Positions 1 through 62,836 of a stretch of 64,000 nt of DNA are shown here, one piece after another. Below the pieces are notes generated by a model. The model was not told the DNA's origin and did no database searches. It saw only the letters and a program-made list of their open reading frames with translations. The position numbers were made by a program, and so were the translations under genes. The stretch is from the NCBI GenBank assembly GCA_050949565.1, contig JBMNFY010000017.1, positions 288,001 through 352,000 on the forward strand. The letters run 5' to 3'. Position 1 is the first letter of the stretch; each line of letters starts with the position of its first letter. The DNA is from Kiritimatiellia bacterium. Lineage in GTDB: Bacteria; Verrucomicrobiota; Kiritimatiellia; RFP12; UBA1067.

Positions 1-1
1 C

Positions 2-484
2 GCGTCCTGCGACTGGGGCTGCAAGAAGAACAGCAAGGGCAAGACAGAATGCTGGCGCGGCTACAAGGCCCATCTGGACGTGATCGACGGCGATATCCCG
101 GTCAGCTTCATACTCACTTCCGCCAGCCTGCACGACAGCCAGGCCGCCATCCCGCTGGCGCAGATGACCGCCGGACGGATCGTCAACCTCTATGATCTGG
201 CCGACGCCGCCTACGACGCCAAGGAGATCCGCGAGATGTCGGCGCGGCTGGGGCACGTGGCGCTCATCGACCACAACCCGCGCCGGGGCGAGAAGATCGA
301 GTTCTCCCCGGCGGAAGCCCGGCGCTACCACGAACGCACGGCCGTCGAGCGCGTCAACAGCCATCTGCACGAAGAGCACGGCGGACGGAACGTCCGGGTG
401 CGCGGCCCGGCGAAGGTGGCGGCGCATCTGGCCTTCGGGCTGCTGGTCATCGCCGCCGAGCAGATGCTCAGAATGCTTCCCTGA
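2..484 (+). mobile_element. DDE transposase (IS4/IS5/IS1182-like), C-terminal part; 5' end lies outside the window
   Basis: The frame is open from position 2: ...DWGCKKNSKGKTECWRGYKAH...LHDS...DAAYD...RYHERTAVERVNS. The GYK-H, D..YD and Y..R..VER motifs are typical of DDE_Tnp_1-type transposases. Confidence 0.85.
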
Positions 485-624
485 CCGGCCCCGCGGCAGA
501 CTGCCCTCCCTGAAAACCCGCCCGCGACCGGGCGGAGGCGCCGGGGTCTGCCCGGAAACATCCGAAAAACGGGAAAAACGCCCTGTCGCGTCCGTTTTTC
601 AGCAACCGCTGCGCCTCTTCGTCA

Positions 625-726
625 GAAAATCCTGCAAAATCCCTTGCGTGCAGGCGTGGCACGGGCATCCTGCCCGTGTTTCATGGGCGGGACGCCCATG
701 TCACGAGGGGGTTTTGCAAGAGCCTC
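625..726 (+). mobile_element. IS right end (IR GGGGTTTTGCAAGAGCCTC) containing a GTGG-type REP doublet; source-like copy of the ~101-bp MITE
   Basis: GTGGCACGGGCATCCTGCCCGTG-TTT-CATGGGCGGGACGCCCATG followed by the IR. Near-identical to 47988-48078 (+) and 59367-59467 (-). Confidence 0.8.
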
Positions 727-47917: not shown

Positions 47918-47987
47918 CAGCGCTCCTTTTGTACGCGACCGCAACGGCGGCCGGCTACGGCTTTTACCACAACCCGCTTAACCGCAC

Positions 47988-48078
47988 GAGAGCCTTGCCC
48001 CTTGCGTGCAGGTGTGGCACGGGCATCTTGCCCGTGTCTCATGGGCGGGACGCCCATGCCACGGGGGAGCAAGAACCC
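47988..48078 (+). mobile_element. degenerate copy of the GTGG-REP MITE upstream of hyfB
   Basis: CCCTTGCGTGCAGGTGTGGCACGGGCATCTTGCCCGTGTCTCATGGGCGGGACGCCCATGCCACG with eroded ends. Confidence 0.8.
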
Positions 48079-48085
48079 ACCACAC

Positions 48086-58045: not shown

Positions 58046-59191
58046 ATGAAAACGGTCATTGTCTTCAGAACCACCGGCCTGAAGTGCTGGCAGCACAAAC
58101 TCGAGGGGATGCACTGGTTCGCCGATGCGCACGGGTGGCGACTGCAAGTGATCGACGGCAACCTCTCCGCCACCCAGACGGCGAACCTGCTGGATTTCTG
58201 GGAAGCGGTAGGTTGCATCATGGAGGCGGACGGCGGCTGCACGAAATTGCGGCCCAGACACTTCCGCCACACACCGGTTGTCTTTCTCGACCACTCACCC
58301 GATATCACCAAAGAAGGTGCGTCCGTTGTCCGCCACGACTCCGCACAAATCGCGCGCGTCGCGGCAAAGGAATTACTGCGACTCGATTTTCACGACTACG
58401 CCCTCGTCGGGTGGTTCTCCCACACCTACTGGACGCTCGACAAACTCGAAGCCTTCAAGTCGGTGCTCGAACTGCACGGCAAGCGCGTGCATGTTTTCGA
58501 GCCTGAAGCCGGCGATCGCGGCGGCACCACCGCGCTTCAAAGGCGCCTTCGGTCCTGGCTACGAAGACTACCCAAACCGTGCGGCGTGTTCGGCGTGAAC
58601 GACTATATCGCCGAACGTGCCCTCTCCGCCGCCGTCGCCCTGGGATACGCGGTTCCCGAAGATCTGGCCTTCGTCGGTGCCGACAATGACGAACTCATTT
58701 GCGAAACGACCCGGCCTTCGATGACCAGCGTTTTGCCGGATTTTAAGACCACGGGGTACATGGCCGCCGAACTGCTCGCCAGAAAGATCGACGATCCCGA
58801 CTCACCGGCGGTCCTGCGCGTTGTTCCTCCGCTCGGAATTGTGCGACGCCAGTCCACACGGCTTTTCAAACGGTCGGACGCATGCGTTCAAGCGGCCATG
58901 GAACTGATCCGGCGCAAAGCCGCAGATGGGATAAAGGCGAGGGACGTTCTTGCAACCTTCCCCTGTTCACGGCGGCAGGCGGAAATCCGGTTCCGCTCCC
59001 TGACTGGACGCAGCGTACTGGAGGAAATACAGGAAGTACGTTTCACCCGCGCGATGGATCTTCTCAAAAGCCCGAACGTCGCCATCGGCGCGATCGCCGG
59101 GCGTTCCGGATGGCCTTCGGAACTCGTACTGGAACGCTATGTTAAGAAAAGAACCGGCAAAACATTGTCGGAAATCAGGCGCACGCAATGA
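58046..59191 (+). CDS. XylR-type regulator (periplasmic-binding-like domain + AraC HTH)
   Basis: LPKPCGVF..ND, VPEDLA.VGADND...C....P..TSV, VRRQST and a C-terminal AraC HTH. Confidence 0.88.
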   Translation: MKTVIVFRTTGLKCWQHKLEGMHWFADAHGWRLQVIDGNLSATQTANLLDFWEAVGCIMEADGGCTKLRPRHFRHTPVVFLDHSPDITKEGASVVRHDSAQIARVAAKELLRLDFHDYALVGWFSHTYWTLDKLEAFKSVLELHGKRVHVFEPEAGDRGGTTALQRRLRSWLRRLPKPCGVFGVNDYIAERALSAAVALGYAVPEDLAFVGADNDELICETTRPSMTSVLPDFKTTGYMAAELLARKIDDPDSPAVLRVVPPLGIVRRQSTRLFKRSDACVQAAMELIRRKAADGIKARDVLATFPCSRRQAEIRFRSLTGRSVLEEIQEVRFTRAMDLLKSPNVAIGAIAGRSGWPSELVLERYVKKRTGKTLSEIRRTQ

Positions 59192-59245
59192 AATTTGTAC
59201 CACTTATTACATCTTACCCATTGCTTCTTACTTCCGCCCTGCCTG

Positions 59246-62200
59246 TTATTCGTTATCTTTTGCTTTCAGCGTGAATGTCCGAACCTCGCCGAAGGGGATC
59301 GGGGGGTGATGCGCGACCTCCATCTGCACTGCAAGTTCCACGGGCAGCGGTGTCGTTTTCCCCTCCGAGACTCTTGCCAAACCCCTCGTGGCATGGGCGT
59401 CCCGCCCATGAAACACGGGCAAGATGCCCGTGCCACACCTGAAAGCAAGGGGGTTTGCAAGAACCTCCTCCGTCTGGAAGAGATCGATCTCGCCGAAATC
59501 AGCATCGGCCAGATACGGCACGTCAGCCGGGCGTCCGTCGCATCCAAGCGGCAGACCGTGCCGAGCGAGCGTCCGAACACCAGCCTTATCACGGAGCCGG
59601 AGCGTCACCGCATGTTGCCGGTCATCGGCGCGCCACGTCGCGACCTGCGTGTTGCCGACCACGATCCGTGCGCGTACAGGCTGGTCGGACGCCACGAGGA
59701 CCACCGCACCGTTTTCCGCTTCGCGCCATACGCCCTCCGCGTCGCGGATCTGCATGCGCGTAAACTCTGCATCAAGATACTTGGGCGGATTGGTGCCGTC
59801 GCACGGCACGTTGCCGACTGCAAGACCAAGCGCCTCCGCTTGGCTCAACCCGCTACCCGGAGAACGCACCCCGAGCATGTGCCCGGCTTGTCGTGCAGCG
59901 CGATAGGCAGCAGCGCCCTCATGAAAAGCCGCGCGCCAGTACCCGCCCGCGTGCGCGTCACGGTCAAACACGAACCACTCCGTCGGCGTTACCGGTTCAC
60001 GCGCCGTTTTGAAGCGCGGCGCGTAAGTCCGGATCAAGCGCGCCGCCGGACGCTCCACACGGTCGGGGCCAATGACCCCGTAATCGCTGCGCTCCCCCAC
60101 ACGGTAGCCGCCGACCCACCACCACGGCACCGTGCCCACCGCACCCGCCGCCAGACCGGTCCGGTAGAACCGCTCCGAATACCGCCCCTGGCGTTCGATC
60201 GCCGCGGCACTCTGCGTCATGCGCACATCGTCCCAGACGTTGAGGCCGAATTCAGACCATACGACCGGCTTGCCACCCGTCGTGAACGCCGTATACCGCG
60301 TGATGAATCCGATCGCGTCTTCGCCCTCATCGGTATCCGGGATCGCGTAGCCTTCGGGGCAGATGAAGTCGATATGTTTGACCGGCCCGCTCAGTGCAAA
60401 ATCGTAAGGCAACGTATTTCCCTGACGGAAACTGATGAGGTGGTTCGGATCCAACTCACGCAAACGGCGGTGCGCCTTGCCCCAGAGGCGGCTCGTGAGC
60501 GTATCCATGAAGCGGCGGTACGCGGCCATCTGCACACGCCACGCACCGTCCTCGCGAAACCAAGCATCCGGCGGCGAGATCGCACGACCGTCCGCATCTC
60601 GCCGCGCCTTAACGCCCCAGTCGCGCTCGGCACGCGCCAGCGAGCCGTAACGCTCATCGATCCAGTCACGCCACGCGCCGTCCCAACGCGCACGCGCCGC
60701 ATCGTTTTTGAATACGTGATTGCCCGGTTCCCAGATCGTGTCGTACGCGAACACCGTGGCATTGCCCGGCAGCCGCGCGGCTTCAAGATAGCCTTTGAGT
60801 TCCGCTTCCTTGAATGCCAACGGCGAGGCTTGCCCCATGAACAGGTTCACGTAGATACCGTGCCGGCGGCACCGTCGCAAAAAATCGAGCAGATTCCGGT
60901 ATTCGCGCTGCGGCGGCGTCTGGATGCTGACCATGTTCACGCCTAGATCCGCCAGATGAATCAGGTCGCGCTCAACCTCTTCCGGCGCATAGAAAGGATC
61001 ACGCAACCAGCCCGCCCAATAGTCGGCGTGATCCATGCCCGACACATAAAGCGGCCAAAAATTCATTCCGACCGGATACCATCTCTCTCCTTTCAACCAG
61101 AAGTTGCCATCCCGCACTGTGATGAACGCATCATGCGGATCAGGCGCAGGATCTAGCACGGCAAAGGTCTGGCTGACGGTCTCTTCGTACTTACCGTCCA
61201 ACAGCGTGATCCGATAGCGGTACTCAGCCGGCTCTGCTGGCGGCTGCCACGTTGTCTCAATGACAGTTGCCCCACGCGACAACATTCTGGAAACCGGAGT
61301 GCGCCACACCGTACGTCCGTCACGCTCCACGCTGAAGGTCACCGTGACCTCGCGCGGCGACGCGCCGAAATGCCGGAGCGATGCGCCGAAGGTGACCGGC
61401 TCGCCCGGCCAGTATGCGAACTGTTCCGGGCCTGCTGTTTCGATCAGCGTCCCGCGCGTCACGTTCTCAACCGCCGCCACCACGCGCGCCAACACGGGCG
61501 GCGTGCTCCACACACTAGGGTCACAGTAGCCGAATCCGGCAAACACGCTCCCGGCCCTGTTTGAGTGGCTGTTGAGCAAAAGCCATTCGCATGCCCCGCC
61601 AGTCATACCGTCAGGACGGCGCGCCTCGGCGAGCGTCACGAACCGCCATTTCGCGCCGCGCTTGTAGCCTTCGCCGCGTGTACGCGGAATCGCGCACACA
61701 ACATCGCGGCAGGACATACCGGCCACCGAGACTTCGCCCGTCACCACATGCGTTTTGTAACGCGGGTAAAGACTTTCGAGCGAAAGGTCTGCGGGAGGCA
61801 ACGCAAGATTCGCTGCGGCCAACGGATCGCGTGCCGACCCCACATCGGCCAGCCACACCGTATGCGCACCGCCGACCATCGCGGGCGTATGCGAAGCCGA
61901 CATACCGAAACAGATGCGCACAGCCTGCGCTGCACGCAGACGGTCGCCTTTGCCGCCCCGTTTTTCCTTGGTGACCGAATCGCGCCAATACCGAAACGCT
62001 GCCAGCGGCAGACCCACCCGACGCCATGTGTTGGTCAGTTCGGACACGGCGATCCAGCGCGAACCGTCGCGCTCAATGATTTCCACCGCGAGTTGGGCCA
62101 GGGGTTTGTCGCTTTTTGCGAGGAGCGTAATCATGTCGTCGCCGTCACCGAACAGCTTGGAGACTTCCGGCGAATGGCGGACTTCCCAGCCTTGCAGCCG

Positions 62201-62836
62201 TTCAATGTCCAAGCGTAGGCAGGCCGTTCCTCCCGGCCCTTCCGGCACGAGCGCGAAGGTACTGTTCTCGTCACGGCCGGAGCGCACCCGACGCCAAGCC
62301 TTGAGATCCATCCCCGCCTTGATTTCAAACGGGCGGTATGTTGGCTCGACGCGCTCCACAAGCGCCGCGCGGCCGGTCGCATCAAGCCAGCACCCGTCGA
62401 CGCGCCAGAGCGCCCGGTCGACAAGCGGCCCGCCGATACAGATCGTATGCACGCCTTCGCGTGCCAGACGATCCACCGCGTTTACTGTCTCAGCCGGTAA
62501 CGAGGCACAGTGCGGCAAAATCAACACACAGAACGGCTGTGCCGACAGCGTCTCAGGCGCAAGAAGTTGATCCGCCGTCAACCGTGCAACCTCGAACCCC
62601 TTAGACAACAGGGCTTCGGCCAGTCGCGCGTTTGCCGTTCGATCATGTCCGGGCAAAGCATCGTCCAGCAATGCCACACGAGCGGGCGCACCTGTCTGTT
62701 GTTGCGGTGGCAGAGTCGTCTGCGGGGCTTCCGCCCGAACCATCACGCCACACAGCATCCATACCGCCGTCATCCAACCGATTGCCCTCCATTTTCGGGT
62801 GACTTCCACGAGCAACATGTTTCTCTCCATTTTCAT
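59246..62836 (-). CDS. large secreted clan-A-like (GH5/GH42-like) glycoside hydrolase carrying an in-frame MITE
   Basis: Signal peptide, G.NFWP, AYDTIWEP, ERYGSL, KPVVWSEFG, WWW.GG; 35-aa repeat-derived insert near the C-terminus. Confidence 0.75.
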   Translation of the reverse strand: MKMERNMLLVEVTRKWRAIGWMTAVWMLCGVMVRAEAPQTTLPPQQQTGAPARVALLDDALPGHDRTANARLAEALLSKGFEVARLTADQLLAPETLSAQPFCVLILPHCASLPAETVNAVDRLAREGVHTICIGGPLVDRALWRVDGCWLDATGRAALVERVEPTYRPFEIKAGMDLKAWRRVRSGRDENSTFALVPEGPGGTACLRLDIERLQGWEVRHSPEVSKLFGDGDDMITLLAKSDKPLAQLAVEIIERDGSRWIAVSELTNTWRRVGLPLAAFRYWRDSVTKEKRGGKGDRLRAAQAVRICFGMSASHTPAMVGGAHTVWLADVGSARDPLAAANLALPPADLSLESLYPRYKTHVVTGEVSVAGMSCRDVVCAIPRTRGEGYKRGAKWRFVTLAEARRPDGMTGGACEWLLLNSHSNRAGSVFAGFGYCDPSVWSTPPVLARVVAAVENVTRGTLIETAGPEQFAYWPGEPVTFGASLRHFGASPREVTVTFSVERDGRTVWRTPVSRMLSRGATVIETTWQPPAEPAEYRYRITLLDGKYEETVSQTFAVLDPAPDPHDAFITVRDGNFWLKGERWYPVGMNFWPLYVSGMDHADYWAGWLRDPFYAPEEVERDLIHLADLGVNMVSIQTPPQREYRNLLDFLRRCRRHGIYVNLFMGQASPLAFKEAELKGYLEAARLPGNATVFAYDTIWEPGNHVFKNDAARARWDGAWRDWIDERYGSLARAERDWGVKARRDADGRAISPPDAWFREDGAWRVQMAAYRRFMDTLTSRLWGKAHRRLRELDPNHLISFRQGNTLPYDFALSGPVKHIDFICPEGYAIPDTDEGEDAIGFITRYTAFTTGGKPVVWSEFGLNVWDDVRMTQSAAAIERQGRYSERFYRTGLAAGAVGTVPWWWVGGYRVGERSDYGVIGPDRVERPAARLIRTYAPRFKTAREPVTPTEWFVFDRDAHAGGYWRAAFHEGAAAYRAARQAGHMLGVRSPGSGLSQAEALGLAVGNVPCDGTNPPKYLDAEFTRMQIRDAEGVWREAENGAVVLVASDQPVRARIVVGNTQVATWRADDRQHAVTLRLRDKAGVRTLARHGLPLGCDGRPADVPYLADADFGEIDLFQTEEVLANPLAFRCGTGILPVFHGRDAHATRGLARVSEGKTTPLPVELAVQMEVAHHPPIPFGEVRTFTLKAKDNE
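59367..59467 (-). mobile_element. 101-bp MITE (TIRs + REP doublet) with a 4-bp CTCC target duplication
   Basis: Ends GAGACTCTTGCCAAACCCC and GGGGTTTGCAAGAACCTC; CTCC at 59363-59366 and 59468-59471. Confidence 0.9.

Follow-up and report, generated by a model that had tools for sequence, protein, structure and literature searches.

A 101-bp MITE, which was probably moved in trans by an insertion sequence (IS) resident in the same genome, lies as a tolerated in-frame insertion in the gene for a 1196-residue protein, a reading to which we give a probability of about 0.9. The copy was found in a window of 64,000 nucleotides (the whole stretch of DNA that was analysed, positions 288,001 to 352,000 of contig JBMNFY010000017.1 of a Kiritimatiellia bacterium), to which the coordinates refer unless a contig is named. 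It occupies positions 59367 to 59467 (+) within a gene that runs from 59246 to 62836 on the minus strand. With 101 bases of element and 4 of duplicated target, 105 bases or 35 codons have been added in a stop-free frame, so that the gene stays open and gains 35 residues. An earlier note, made from the letters of the DNA, had described the insertion in these terms and the translation confirms it; the frame is open for all 1196 residues and the insert forms residues 1126–1160, with the peptide as claimed (...FQTE-EVLANPLAFRCGTGILPVFHGRDAHATRGLARVSE-GKTTPLPV...).

The extent of the element was defined through blastn coverage, the alignment of its copies and its exact absence from orthologues. Coverage rises at query base 5 and drops past base 105, in agreement with the boundaries given in the earlier note, and the proposed CTCC flanks are present at 59363–59366 and 59468–59471, where the orthologues have a single GGAG (coding strand) at their empty site. 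The TIRs given by the repeat finder lie at 59367–59386 and 59448–59467 (both +), both also being apparent from alignment with near-full copies and the parent IS. They had been described as imperfect and about 18 bp long; imperfect they are, with 80% complementarity between the arms, though each is 20 nt in length and the TIR of the family consensus is perfect. Between them are two 23-nt arms, 78% complementary and separated by a 3-nt gap, with the GTGG/CCAC foot of each pointing outwards. Each arm alone forms a hairpin with an 8-bp stem; hairpin A (59388–59410, +) has a 3-nt loop and hairpin B (59414–59436, −) is inverted relative to it. This is the GTGG-footed inverted REP pair proposed earlier, and it also occurs outside TIRs. 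The doublet folds as a single long hairpin, with a value for the mRNA of −61.8 kcal/mol (z = −7.2). The sole match in an Rfam scan of 59200–59650 (E ≤ 1) was to a snoRNA and is attributable to chance (E = 0.65; 18 versus 40 bits), so the element belongs to no known RNA family. Its six-frame translations are 33-residue peptides and include no transposase.

When the element was compared with its own genome by blastn, 274 matches were obtained at E ≤ 1e-5, 104 of them near-full copies, which together with the sharp coverage edges is far beyond chance. Both TIRs are present in 81 of the near-full copies (54 of these exactly 101 bp), and 70 remain as MITEs once IS ends are removed. The family is made up of these roughly 70 two-ended copies, mostly of 101 bp with 4-bp duplications. 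Exact target-site duplications (TSDs) of 4–6 bp flank 39 of the 70 (4 bp in 32, 5 bp in six and 6 bp in one), against a chance expectation of 1/256 per copy. Most copies are intergenic, and they show no bias in orientation with respect to the gene downstream of them (26 same, 23 opposite). A degenerate copy lies within the window at 47983–48083 (−), where the doublet is intact (48014–48062) and the TIRs are eroded. Across the 70 copies the hairpin core is 98% conserved and the TIRs 89%. Maintenance driven simply by the TIRs would predict the opposite, which may point to a second process at work on the hairpins. A scan of this genome found no mini-elements that have these TIRs and lack the hairpins.

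The parent IS, in the same genome, is 1650 bp long, with a perfect TIR of 20 nt that matches the end of the MITE consensus exactly; the ends of the copy at 59367–59467 match it with a few substitutions. There are 11–12 copies at 98.4–100% identity (most ≥99.6%) and one diverged copy at 91.7%. One of them (C17:287074-288726) straddles the start of the window, where its right-hand 726 bp (1–726, −) contain the 3′ part of the transposase gene, to about position 481 (+), and a hairpin-bearing end unit (625–726), followed by the TSD ATGA (727–730). The transposase matches PF01609 (DDE_Tnp_1; 2.2e-9, 37.8 bits, cut-off 23) and PF05598 (DUF772, N-terminal; 7.8e-9, 35.9 bits, cut-off 23.1). Its best NCBIfam matches, IS1182 (90.4 bits, cut-off 270), IS5_4 (69.9, cut-off 140) and IS5_3 (63.5, cut-off 110), are all below the equivalog cut-offs and we therefore call the IS IS5/IS1182-like without assigning it to a family. 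The IS5 and IS1182 groups are characterised in ISfinder by 4-bp TSDs and GA/GG-type ends. Both features are seen in the parent IS, whose ends begin GAGG; in the ten copies with both flanks readable the TSD is 4 bp in three, 5 bp in two, 3 bp in one and 7 bp in one, with none in the other three. A YTAR-type target consensus was not found among the 32 4-bp MITE TSDs. The IS-type ends and 4-bp duplication that had been seen on a non-autonomous element are thus borne out by an IS with identical ends, and the guess of a DDE transposase of IS5/IS1182-like type proved correct. With small size, TIRs, a TSD, dispersed copies with occupied and empty sites, and an autonomous element with the same ends, the structural features expected of a MITE are present.

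In other genomes there are related ISs that share these ends and have no hairpins. Where the IS of this genome has the doublet, they have only a short spacer, which separates the left end from a subterminal inverted copy of it. As these ends are found without hairpins, and the doublet is found without TIRs, the phrase ‘REP doublet packaged in IS ends’ in the earlier note is a fair description.

From the shared ends, the TSD length and co-residence in one genome, we infer that the MITE is mobilised in trans by the DDE transposase of the 1650-bp IS. A staggered 4-bp cut by this enzyme would have produced the CTCC duplication, and the inner hairpin doublet would be cargo carried between the left end of the IS and the subterminal inverted copy of that end. 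The element would have inserted after the 82–91% relatives had split off, in a common ancestor that this genome (G000) shares with its 98% relative G004, and its landing site would be the 3′ part of a putative secreted glycoside-hydrolase-like gene. The 35 residues would be a tolerated passenger, probably near-neutral, and they are presumably translated. The query used did not detect the parent IS in the G004 assembly (78% complete), though the insertion is common to both genomes. IS copies are frequently left unassembled in MAGs.

The history of the insertion can be followed through orthologues of the host gene. In four genomes of the same genus (G002, G003, G001 and G006, at 91, 85, 83 and 82% amino-acid identity) the site is precisely empty, with exactly 35 residues absent and one GGAG, and three more distant orthologues also do not have the segment. 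The edges of presence and absence coincide with the ends of the TIRs and not with those of the hairpins. The G004 orthologue carries the insert. Between G000 and G004 the host gene has 49 synonymous and 23 non-synonymous changes (dN/dS 0.150), and the 36 residues on the 3′ side of the insert show one change; the gene has been under purifying selection since the insertion.

The host protein has a hydrophobic N-terminus and a weak match to the GH42-type TIM barrel (PF02449; E = 4.4e-4, 20.1 bits, slightly below the cut-off of 21). As it matched no NCBIfam family and no PDB sequence, the label of enzyme comes down to this single sub-threshold match. In an AlphaFold2 model of the last 295 residues, which is weak overall (mean pLDDT 55, pTM 0.50), pLDDT falls below 50 at model residues 222–260 and the insert corresponds to 225–259. 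The flanking strands (209–217 and 266–275) are part of a domain whose block means range from 51 to 91, mostly 65–91. With low confidence, the insert may be a loop between two strands of a C-terminal β-sandwich. Contigs from RNA libraries of two studies cross each junction with 0 mismatches (X15, 59100–59408; X16, 59412–59765), at a depth of about 5 and with DNA carry-over possible. Among the contigs of four RNA libraries none covers the whole element and the gene is partly uncovered.

The same event has recurred, as the earlier note suggested, in at least six real genes with in-frame interior copies: the glycoside-hydrolase-like host, SbcD, fumarase, an FtsX permease, an α/β-hydrolase and an Eco57I-like methylase. 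All six copies are 101 bp and open, with Pfam domains on both sides of the insert in the ORF, and the one in fumarase sits within the catalytic domain. Other copies affect C-termini, including those of Tgt and a CbiA-like gene. Empty sites were found in same-genus genomes at five loci (the host gene, fumarase, FtsX, the hydrolase and Tgt). For five genes other than the host, Tgt included, dN/dS between G000 and G004, both with inserts, is 0.10–0.24. The SbcD orthologue is found in G004 only and carries the insert. The Eco57I-like methylase has no orthologue in five genus genomes at E ≤ 1e-25, so an empty site cannot be demonstrated for it. Three further candidates were rejected. At C11:6409 a 723-aa gene had appeared disrupted by the element, and the TSD there is 5 bp and not 4 bp as excised; this copy lies 11 codons ahead of a stop and swaps the C-terminus. 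At C10:78897 and C17:279970 the coding score of the upstream part is negative, and the true gene start probably lies downstream. Genes were called with a home-made caller based on codon log-odds (2764–2769 genes, 81% coding), and counts close to gene starts hinge on its longest-ORF start rule.

Could the element have killed the host gene, with the open frame simply a remnant in a decaying pseudogene? The stable hairpin in the mRNA could hinder translation and the enzyme assignment is weak, but the frame of 1196 residues is intact in both G000 and G004, whose divergence postdates the insertion, the low dN/dS applies to that same interval and the residues past the insert are conserved, which makes decay very unlikely. 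That the 35 residues are native, or that the repeat was placed there by misassembly, has next to no probability left: the frame is open and MAG assemblies can misjoin at repeats, yet the seven orthologues that lack the segment and the independent public-run contigs across each junction refute such an origin, and the occupied site in G004 and the roughly 70 copies elsewhere, mostly non-coding, also argue against it.

The earlier note went further and proposed that length plus TSD preserves reading frames, which raises the question of whether selection has shaped it to do so. Colonisation of coding regions with the addition of peptides has been proposed for Rickettsia palindromic elements, according to two later accounts (PMC10969869, PMC3733652), and several features here could be read as such a design. 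In 52 of the 70 copies the sum of length and TSD is divisible by three, and five of the six consensus frames are open. Every one of the six interior copies measures 101 bp and is open, the gene around it being under purifying selection, and a sister family in genome G035 has a length of 122 bp (122 + 4 = 126). Against this, divisibility by three has an a priori chance of 1/3, and sister forms of 100, 121, 131, 133 and 147–157 bp break the rule. At least five open frames are quite ordinary, being found in 32% of dinucleotide shuffles (P = 0.32), 21% of palindromic nulls and 11% of random genomic 101-mers. Only six to nine of the 70 copies are interior to genes where 74% would be expected at random (P < 1e-26), so there is avoidance or purging of coding DNA and no preference for it. 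Interior copies account for 6 of 52 with frame-preserving lengths and 0 of 18 others, which is not significant (P = 0.33). By these comparisons there is no evidence for frame preservation as a selected design, and we consider it unlikely.

The hairpins have a life outside the MITE. Hairpin A has 211 genomic matches at ≤3 mismatches and hairpin B 282, about 68 of them solitary, and there are 145 inverted A+B− doublets, many of them outside a TIR context. The exact 49-nt doublet also occurs in MAGs with several different taxonomic labels. An imperfect palindrome with a 5′ GTGG tetranucleotide foot, repeated as an inverted doublet, is typical of REPs, and conservation of the core exceeds that of the TIRs. 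It might be argued that the doublet is a REPIN, reportedly a subject of Bertels and Rainey in 2011 (PMC3116915), which was placed by a RAYT, a Y1 (HUH) enzyme, and that the flanking inverted repeats are incidental. Seven RAYT-like ORFs are present in the genome; one has a doublet 11 bp past its stop and a truncated one has hairpin arrays on both sides. All seven, however, score 32–57 bits against an NCBIfam cut-off of 80, hairpins lie within 3 kb of three of them when a rough estimate gives about two by chance, and a clean REP-flanked arrangement was seen at none of the seven. To our knowledge Y1 transposases of the IS200/IS605 type insert without a TSD, while exact duplications flank the copy at 59367–59467 and more than half of the family, and it is at the TIRs that presence in orthologues begins and ends. 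Placement of this copy by a RAYT is accordingly most improbable, and the hybrid with HUH RAYTs suggested earlier is, like any link of the core to a RAYT, unproven.

A variant of the mobilisation in trans that we favour treats the pair of IS-type TIRs as a reusable vehicle and the doublet as a cargo with a maintenance of its own. Among Kiritimatiellia genomes, at least four different cores lie between these ends with 4-bp TSDs, and two of the cores are distinct GTGG-footed inverted hairpin pairs. This is speculative and we think it rather doubtful. It would fit a two-enzyme chimera, with REP doublets installed and homogenised in the MITE foldback by a process directed at hairpins (RAYT-like, or else gene conversion) and then spread by a DDE transposase, also into proteins by 35-codon steps. 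Hairpins set within TIRs give a modest clue to the ways in which DDE elements and REP-like hairpins may combine.

As reviewed in the sources consulted (Minnick, 2024, PMC10969869; Delihas, 2011, PMC3184786), IS-derived bacterial MITEs are shorter than 300 bp, with the TIRs of a resident IS, a TSD, tens of copies and a strong predicted fold, and are mostly intergenic, adjoining genes and sometimes fused in frame with host ORFs. The Kiritimatiellia element resembles them in all of this, and differs from what is described there in that its core is a REP-like doublet that also lives outside the element and is conserved above the TIRs. Our literature searches gave no description of an IS or MITE for the phylum, and the sequence family is new. 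In-frame insertion of a MITE or REP is itself known since 2000, from Rickettsia palindromic elements and Opitutus terrae REPs. The former (Ogata et al, 2000, as cited in PMC10969869 and PMC3733652) are likewise in-frame palindromic repeats in unrelated housekeeping genes, adding tens of residues with function apparently kept. The comparison is one of function; unlike those elements as they are described there, the Kiritimatiellia MITE has an identified transposase-bearing parent, TIRs and TSDs, and its intragenic share is 6–9 of 70 compared with nearly half in some Rickettsia families.

GTAG-type REPs and their dimers, including the GTGG-footed GTAG-20 family of O. terrae, have been described by Di Nocera et al (2013, PMC3733652), and dimers within genes are stated to encode 20–30 residues. 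Judged by that description and not by sequence, the two systems share short GC-rich GTGG-footed hairpins in inverted pairs, at hundreds per genome in a PVC bacterium. The doublet studied here differs in lying inside DDE-type TIRs with a 4-bp duplication, and, unlike GTAG-type REPs and REPINs as they are portrayed, its hairpins were not found to flank any RAYT cleanly. QMITE1 and QMITE2 of Coxiella burnetii overlap the 3′ ends of functional genes, replacing or extending C-termini, and their truncated copies are said to resemble REPs (PMC5896051). Copies of the Kiritimatiellia MITE also hit gene 3′ ends, but whereas the QMITEs, on that account, mainly affect C-termini, six copies here are interior, one in a catalytic domain.

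For an uncultured PVC lineage, the Kiritimatiellia from digesters, sludge and landfill, this is a worked example in which a MITE can be set beside its parent IS, its insertions can be dated and empty sites are seen. Six housekeeping or enzyme genes tolerate a transposon-encoded loop of 35 residues and so mark out, in nature, where an insertion can be tolerated. Annotators can expect ‘...HGRDAHAT...’ and ‘...HGQDARAT...’ peptides to recur among the predicted proteins of these genomes, and the family accounts for them.

The earlier note's description of the sequence at 59363-59471 was borne out, both by the sequence itself and by a repeat finder. The outer arms of the 101-bp element (the TIRs, 59367-59386 and 59448-59467) are 20 nt long and 80% complementary, and the inner arms (hairpin A, 59388-59410, and hairpin B, 59414-59436), each of 23 nt and separated by 3 nt, are 78% complementary; each forms by itself a hairpin with an 8-bp stem and an outward GTGG/CCAC foot. 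CTCC is found on either side of the element. The host ORF, 59246-62836 on the minus strand, translates to 1196 residues without a stop, reading through the element as ...FQTE EVLANPL...ARVSE GKTTPLPV..., and the coding-strand RNA of the element is predicted to fold as a single long hairpin (-61.8 kcal/mol, z = -7.2). Orthologues of the host protein are present in all six same-genus genomes searched, the match in G005 being partial (residues 17-517) and stopping short of the insertion site. The empty site that was sought in these orthologues is present, and precise, in four of them: G002, G003, G001 and G006 (91, 85, 83 and 82% amino-acid identity, respectively) lack exactly the 35 codons and have a single GGAG on the coding strand where the source genome has GGAG-element-GGAG. 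The segment is also missing from more distant homologues (46-64% identity). G004, at 98% identity, carries the insert, with one base different from the source genome in the 60-base stretch compared there.

The element belongs to a MITE family that is new and whose DDE parent has been identified. A blastn search of the organism's own genome (4.66 Mb, 60.4% GC) with the 109-bp stretch gave 274 matches at E ≤ 1e-5, and the sharp ends of the repeat are apparent from the coverage, which steps from 23 to 77 at query base 5 and drops from 65 to 15 past base 105. Among the 104 near-full copies taken from these matches, 81 differ from the consensus TIR by no more than 6 mismatches at each end, and exactly 101 bp is the length of 54 of these. 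Twelve near-full matches continue identically past one end and are the ends of a larger repeat. Removing the 11 of these that are among the 81 left a set of 70 MITEs. Exact TSDs are of 4 bp in 32 of the 70, 5 bp in six and 6 bp in one; for the remainder the TSDs are mostly imperfect, or the projected boundaries are one base off. The 32 tetranucleotides are 44% GC without a consensus, and the 30-bp flanks of the MITEs are 47% GC against 60% for the genome. Four copies form a 133-134-bp variant with three hairpins (A-B-A) within the same TIRs (C8:53548-53680, C16:113594-113726, C17:919192-919325 and C17:994287-994419). A degenerate second copy lies in the window at 47983-48083, where the doublet is intact and the TIRs are eroded.

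The larger repeat proved to be an IS of 1650 bp. Its 11-12 copies are 98.4-100% identical, the majority at least 99.6%, and there is one further, diverged copy at 91.7%. It has perfect TIRs of 20 nt that match the MITE consensus end exactly, and TSDs of mostly 4-5 bp. Window positions 1-726 lie inside one of the near-identical copies (C17:287074-288726, ending at window 726). With 11-12 copies so alike, recent activity of the IS is probable. The IS encodes a 371-aa transposase, P0002, which passes the Pfam cut-offs for both PF05598 (DUF772) and PF01609 (DDE_Tnp_1). The top-ranking NCBIfam models are IS1182 (90 bits) and then IS5 models (70 and 64 bits); since these scores are all under the equivalog cut-offs, we name the IS only as IS5/IS1182-like. 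When 5.8 billion proteins were searched, 6405 of the 8000 candidates that were scored proved to be relatives at E ≤ 1e-20. Most of these are 366-371 aa long and lie on contigs of 1.2-2.3 kb, and no name among them goes past 'hypothetical protein'. The first 102 bp of the IS constitute a complete MITE-like unit, comprising the left end, the hairpin doublet and then that end again, inverted and degenerate. The ISs encoding related transposases in G035 (83% identity), G039 (76%) and G001 (74%) share these ends without the hairpins, and in the G035 IS an 18-nt spacer separates the left end from the same subterminal inverted copy. It follows that the subterminal foldback is ancestral and that the hairpin doublet was added to it.

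Apart from this hairpin-cargo architecture, the family is a routine new one. At up to 3 mismatches there are 211 matches to hairpin A and 282 to hairpin B in the source genome, the commonest unit being the A+B- doublet (145 copies); hairpin B stands alone about 68 times, within other composite repeats. As a module it is seen at many loci (e.g. C1:40580, C6:54152 and C17:605146), for example after two other GC-rich hairpins, sometimes in tandem with a period of ~290 bp. Hairpin clusters outside the MITEs lie inside called genes in 15 of 181 cases. Matches to PF01797 and to the REP-associated tyrosine transposase model of NCBIfam were found for seven ORFs, each scoring under the latter's cut-off, and three of the seven have hairpins within 3 kb. 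The nearest to a REP-flanked RAYT in this genome is a 778-aa open frame (C10:220516-222849, minus strand) with a DNA-methyltransferase-like N-terminal part and a truncated RAYT-like C-terminal part; it holds two tandem doublet arrays read as ...HGQDAHATN... repeats, with more hairpin arrays just 3'.

Over the 70 MITEs conservation is 98% in the hairpins, 89% in the TIRs and 85% in the linker. As a core-blind scan of the source genome for TIR pairs found no other cores, the high hairpin conservation is not due to detection bias. The exact 49-nt doublet is found at 79 or more loci in MAG records titled Kiritimatiellia, Kiritimatiellae, Verrucomicrobia, Lentisphaerae, Lentisphaerales and Victivallales, and the same TIRs enclose it at most of the matches listed (L021-L099). 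A 37-nt TIR-hairpin junction pattern, run with up to 3 mismatches on 301 genomes sampled from the class, is present in ten, with 82 matches in the source genome and 1-9 in each of nine others from eight families. The identity of the doublet across PVC labels, together with the hairpins being more conserved than the TIRs, could reflect homogenisation, constraint or transfer. Elsewhere the same ends hold other cores: in G035, with 4-bp TSDs, a different GTGG-footed inverted hairpin pair (5 loci, 121-122 bp), and in G001 and G063 unrelated cores. The other-core loci with this TIR pair (L151-L155 in G035, L160-L161 in G001, L162-L164 in G063 and G035) have 4-bp TSDs.

To locate the MITEs relative to genes we used a self-built gene caller based on codon log-odds, run after excising the 70 MITEs, which called 2764 genes over 81% of the genome. 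Only nine of the 70 (13%) are interior to a called gene compared with 74% of random positions (binomial P < 1e-26), whereas 15 are within 30 codons of a predicted start (random 5.4%), seven within 10 codons of a stop (1.7%) and 39 intergenic (18.7%). A gene start lies within -90 to +300 bp for 49 MITEs, 43 of them at no more than about 50 bp, with no bias in orientation relative to that gene (26:23). This clustering, which depends on self-called starts, could arise from AT-rich 5' regions being preferred as targets or from an effect on expression. MITEs near starts (e.g. C10:211792, C6:29685 and C17:527307) are often directly 5' of a GGAG-type ribosome-binding site.

Three of the nine interior sites were dropped, two probably being upstream of the true start and one an excision artefact. 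The remaining six keep the host frame open through the element and have a positive coding score and Pfam domains to either side of it: the present gene, SbcD (between the Metallophos and SbcD_C domains), a class I fumarase (inside PF05681), an FtsX/MacB-type permease, a double alpha/beta-hydrolase and an Eco57I/N6_Mtase protein. Copies also form the extreme C-terminus of Tgt and of a CbiA/4Fe-4S protein. Across these genes the element is read in three different frames, and none of the interior MITEs breaks its gene. The insert is absent from the fumarase in G001 and G003, the permease in G003 and G006, the hydrolase in G001 and G006, and Tgt in G001, G002 and G003, while G004 carries every one of these inserts where an orthologue exists. 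The 105-bp footprint is repeatedly tolerated within functional genes. In the hydrolase (C4:128441-130330, L104) some 25 extra residues beside the MITE (residues ~235-263), present in the source genome and G004 and not in G001 or G006, may be a second small insertion.

In-frame MITE insertion is a well-known kind of event. A review describes in-frame fusions by intragenic MITEs as not unusual, with RPEs the extreme case (Minnick 2024, PMC10969869), internal and 3'-terminal fusions are listed (Delihas 2011, PMC3184786), QMITEs of Coxiella change C-termini (PMC5896051), and Opitutus terrae, a PVC bacterium with GTAG REPs bearing a GTGG foot, has the highest number of intragenic REPs, dimers of which encode 20-30 residues (Di Nocera et al, 2013, PMC3733652). 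The limited literature collection searched yielded no account of IS or MITE families in Kiritimatiellia, and none of an IS5-type MITE with a REP core.

The earlier note had interpreted the element as a hybrid, non-autonomous one whose length plus TSD preserves reading frames. Its observation stands and its interpretation is supported in part: the element is non-autonomous and has a DDE parent, but we found no evidence for frame preservation as a selected design. The length arithmetic is real and lets insertions survive: length plus TSD is a multiple of three in 52 of 70 MITEs, because most copies keep the founder length. Five of the six frames of the consensus are open, which is matched by 32% of dinucleotide shuffles, 21% of palindromic nulls and 11% of random genomic 101-mers. 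Interior in-frame copies make up six of the 52 with frame-preserving lengths and none of the other 18 (Fisher P = 0.33), and sister forms do not follow the rule of three, being 133 bp (4 copies) in the source genome and 100, 121-122, 131 and 147-157 bp elsewhere.

Since the source genome and G004 both carry the inserts, the differences between them postdate insertion. By the Nei-Gojobori method dN/dS between the two is 0.150 for the present gene (49 synonymous and 23 non-synonymous changes), 0.103 for SbcD, 0.127 for the permease, 0.153 for Tgt, 0.193 for the hydrolase and 0.242 for the fumarase. The last 295 residues of the host protein were modelled by AlphaFold2 with eight orthologues. The model is weak overall (mean pLDDT 55); it predicts a beta-sandwich, whose block means span 51-91 and are mostly 65-91, and would place the insert in a stretch of pLDDT <50 between strands 209-217 and 266-275 (model numbering). 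Metatranscriptomic contigs from two studies cross both junctions (59100-59408 on the left, 59412-59765 on the right) with 0 mismatches at a depth of ~5, where DNA carry-over is possible. Over the hairpin core (59387-59427) the summed contig depth reaches thousands in four metatranscriptomic libraries (X15-X18), a signal that comes from many loci and organisms and is not assignable to this gene.
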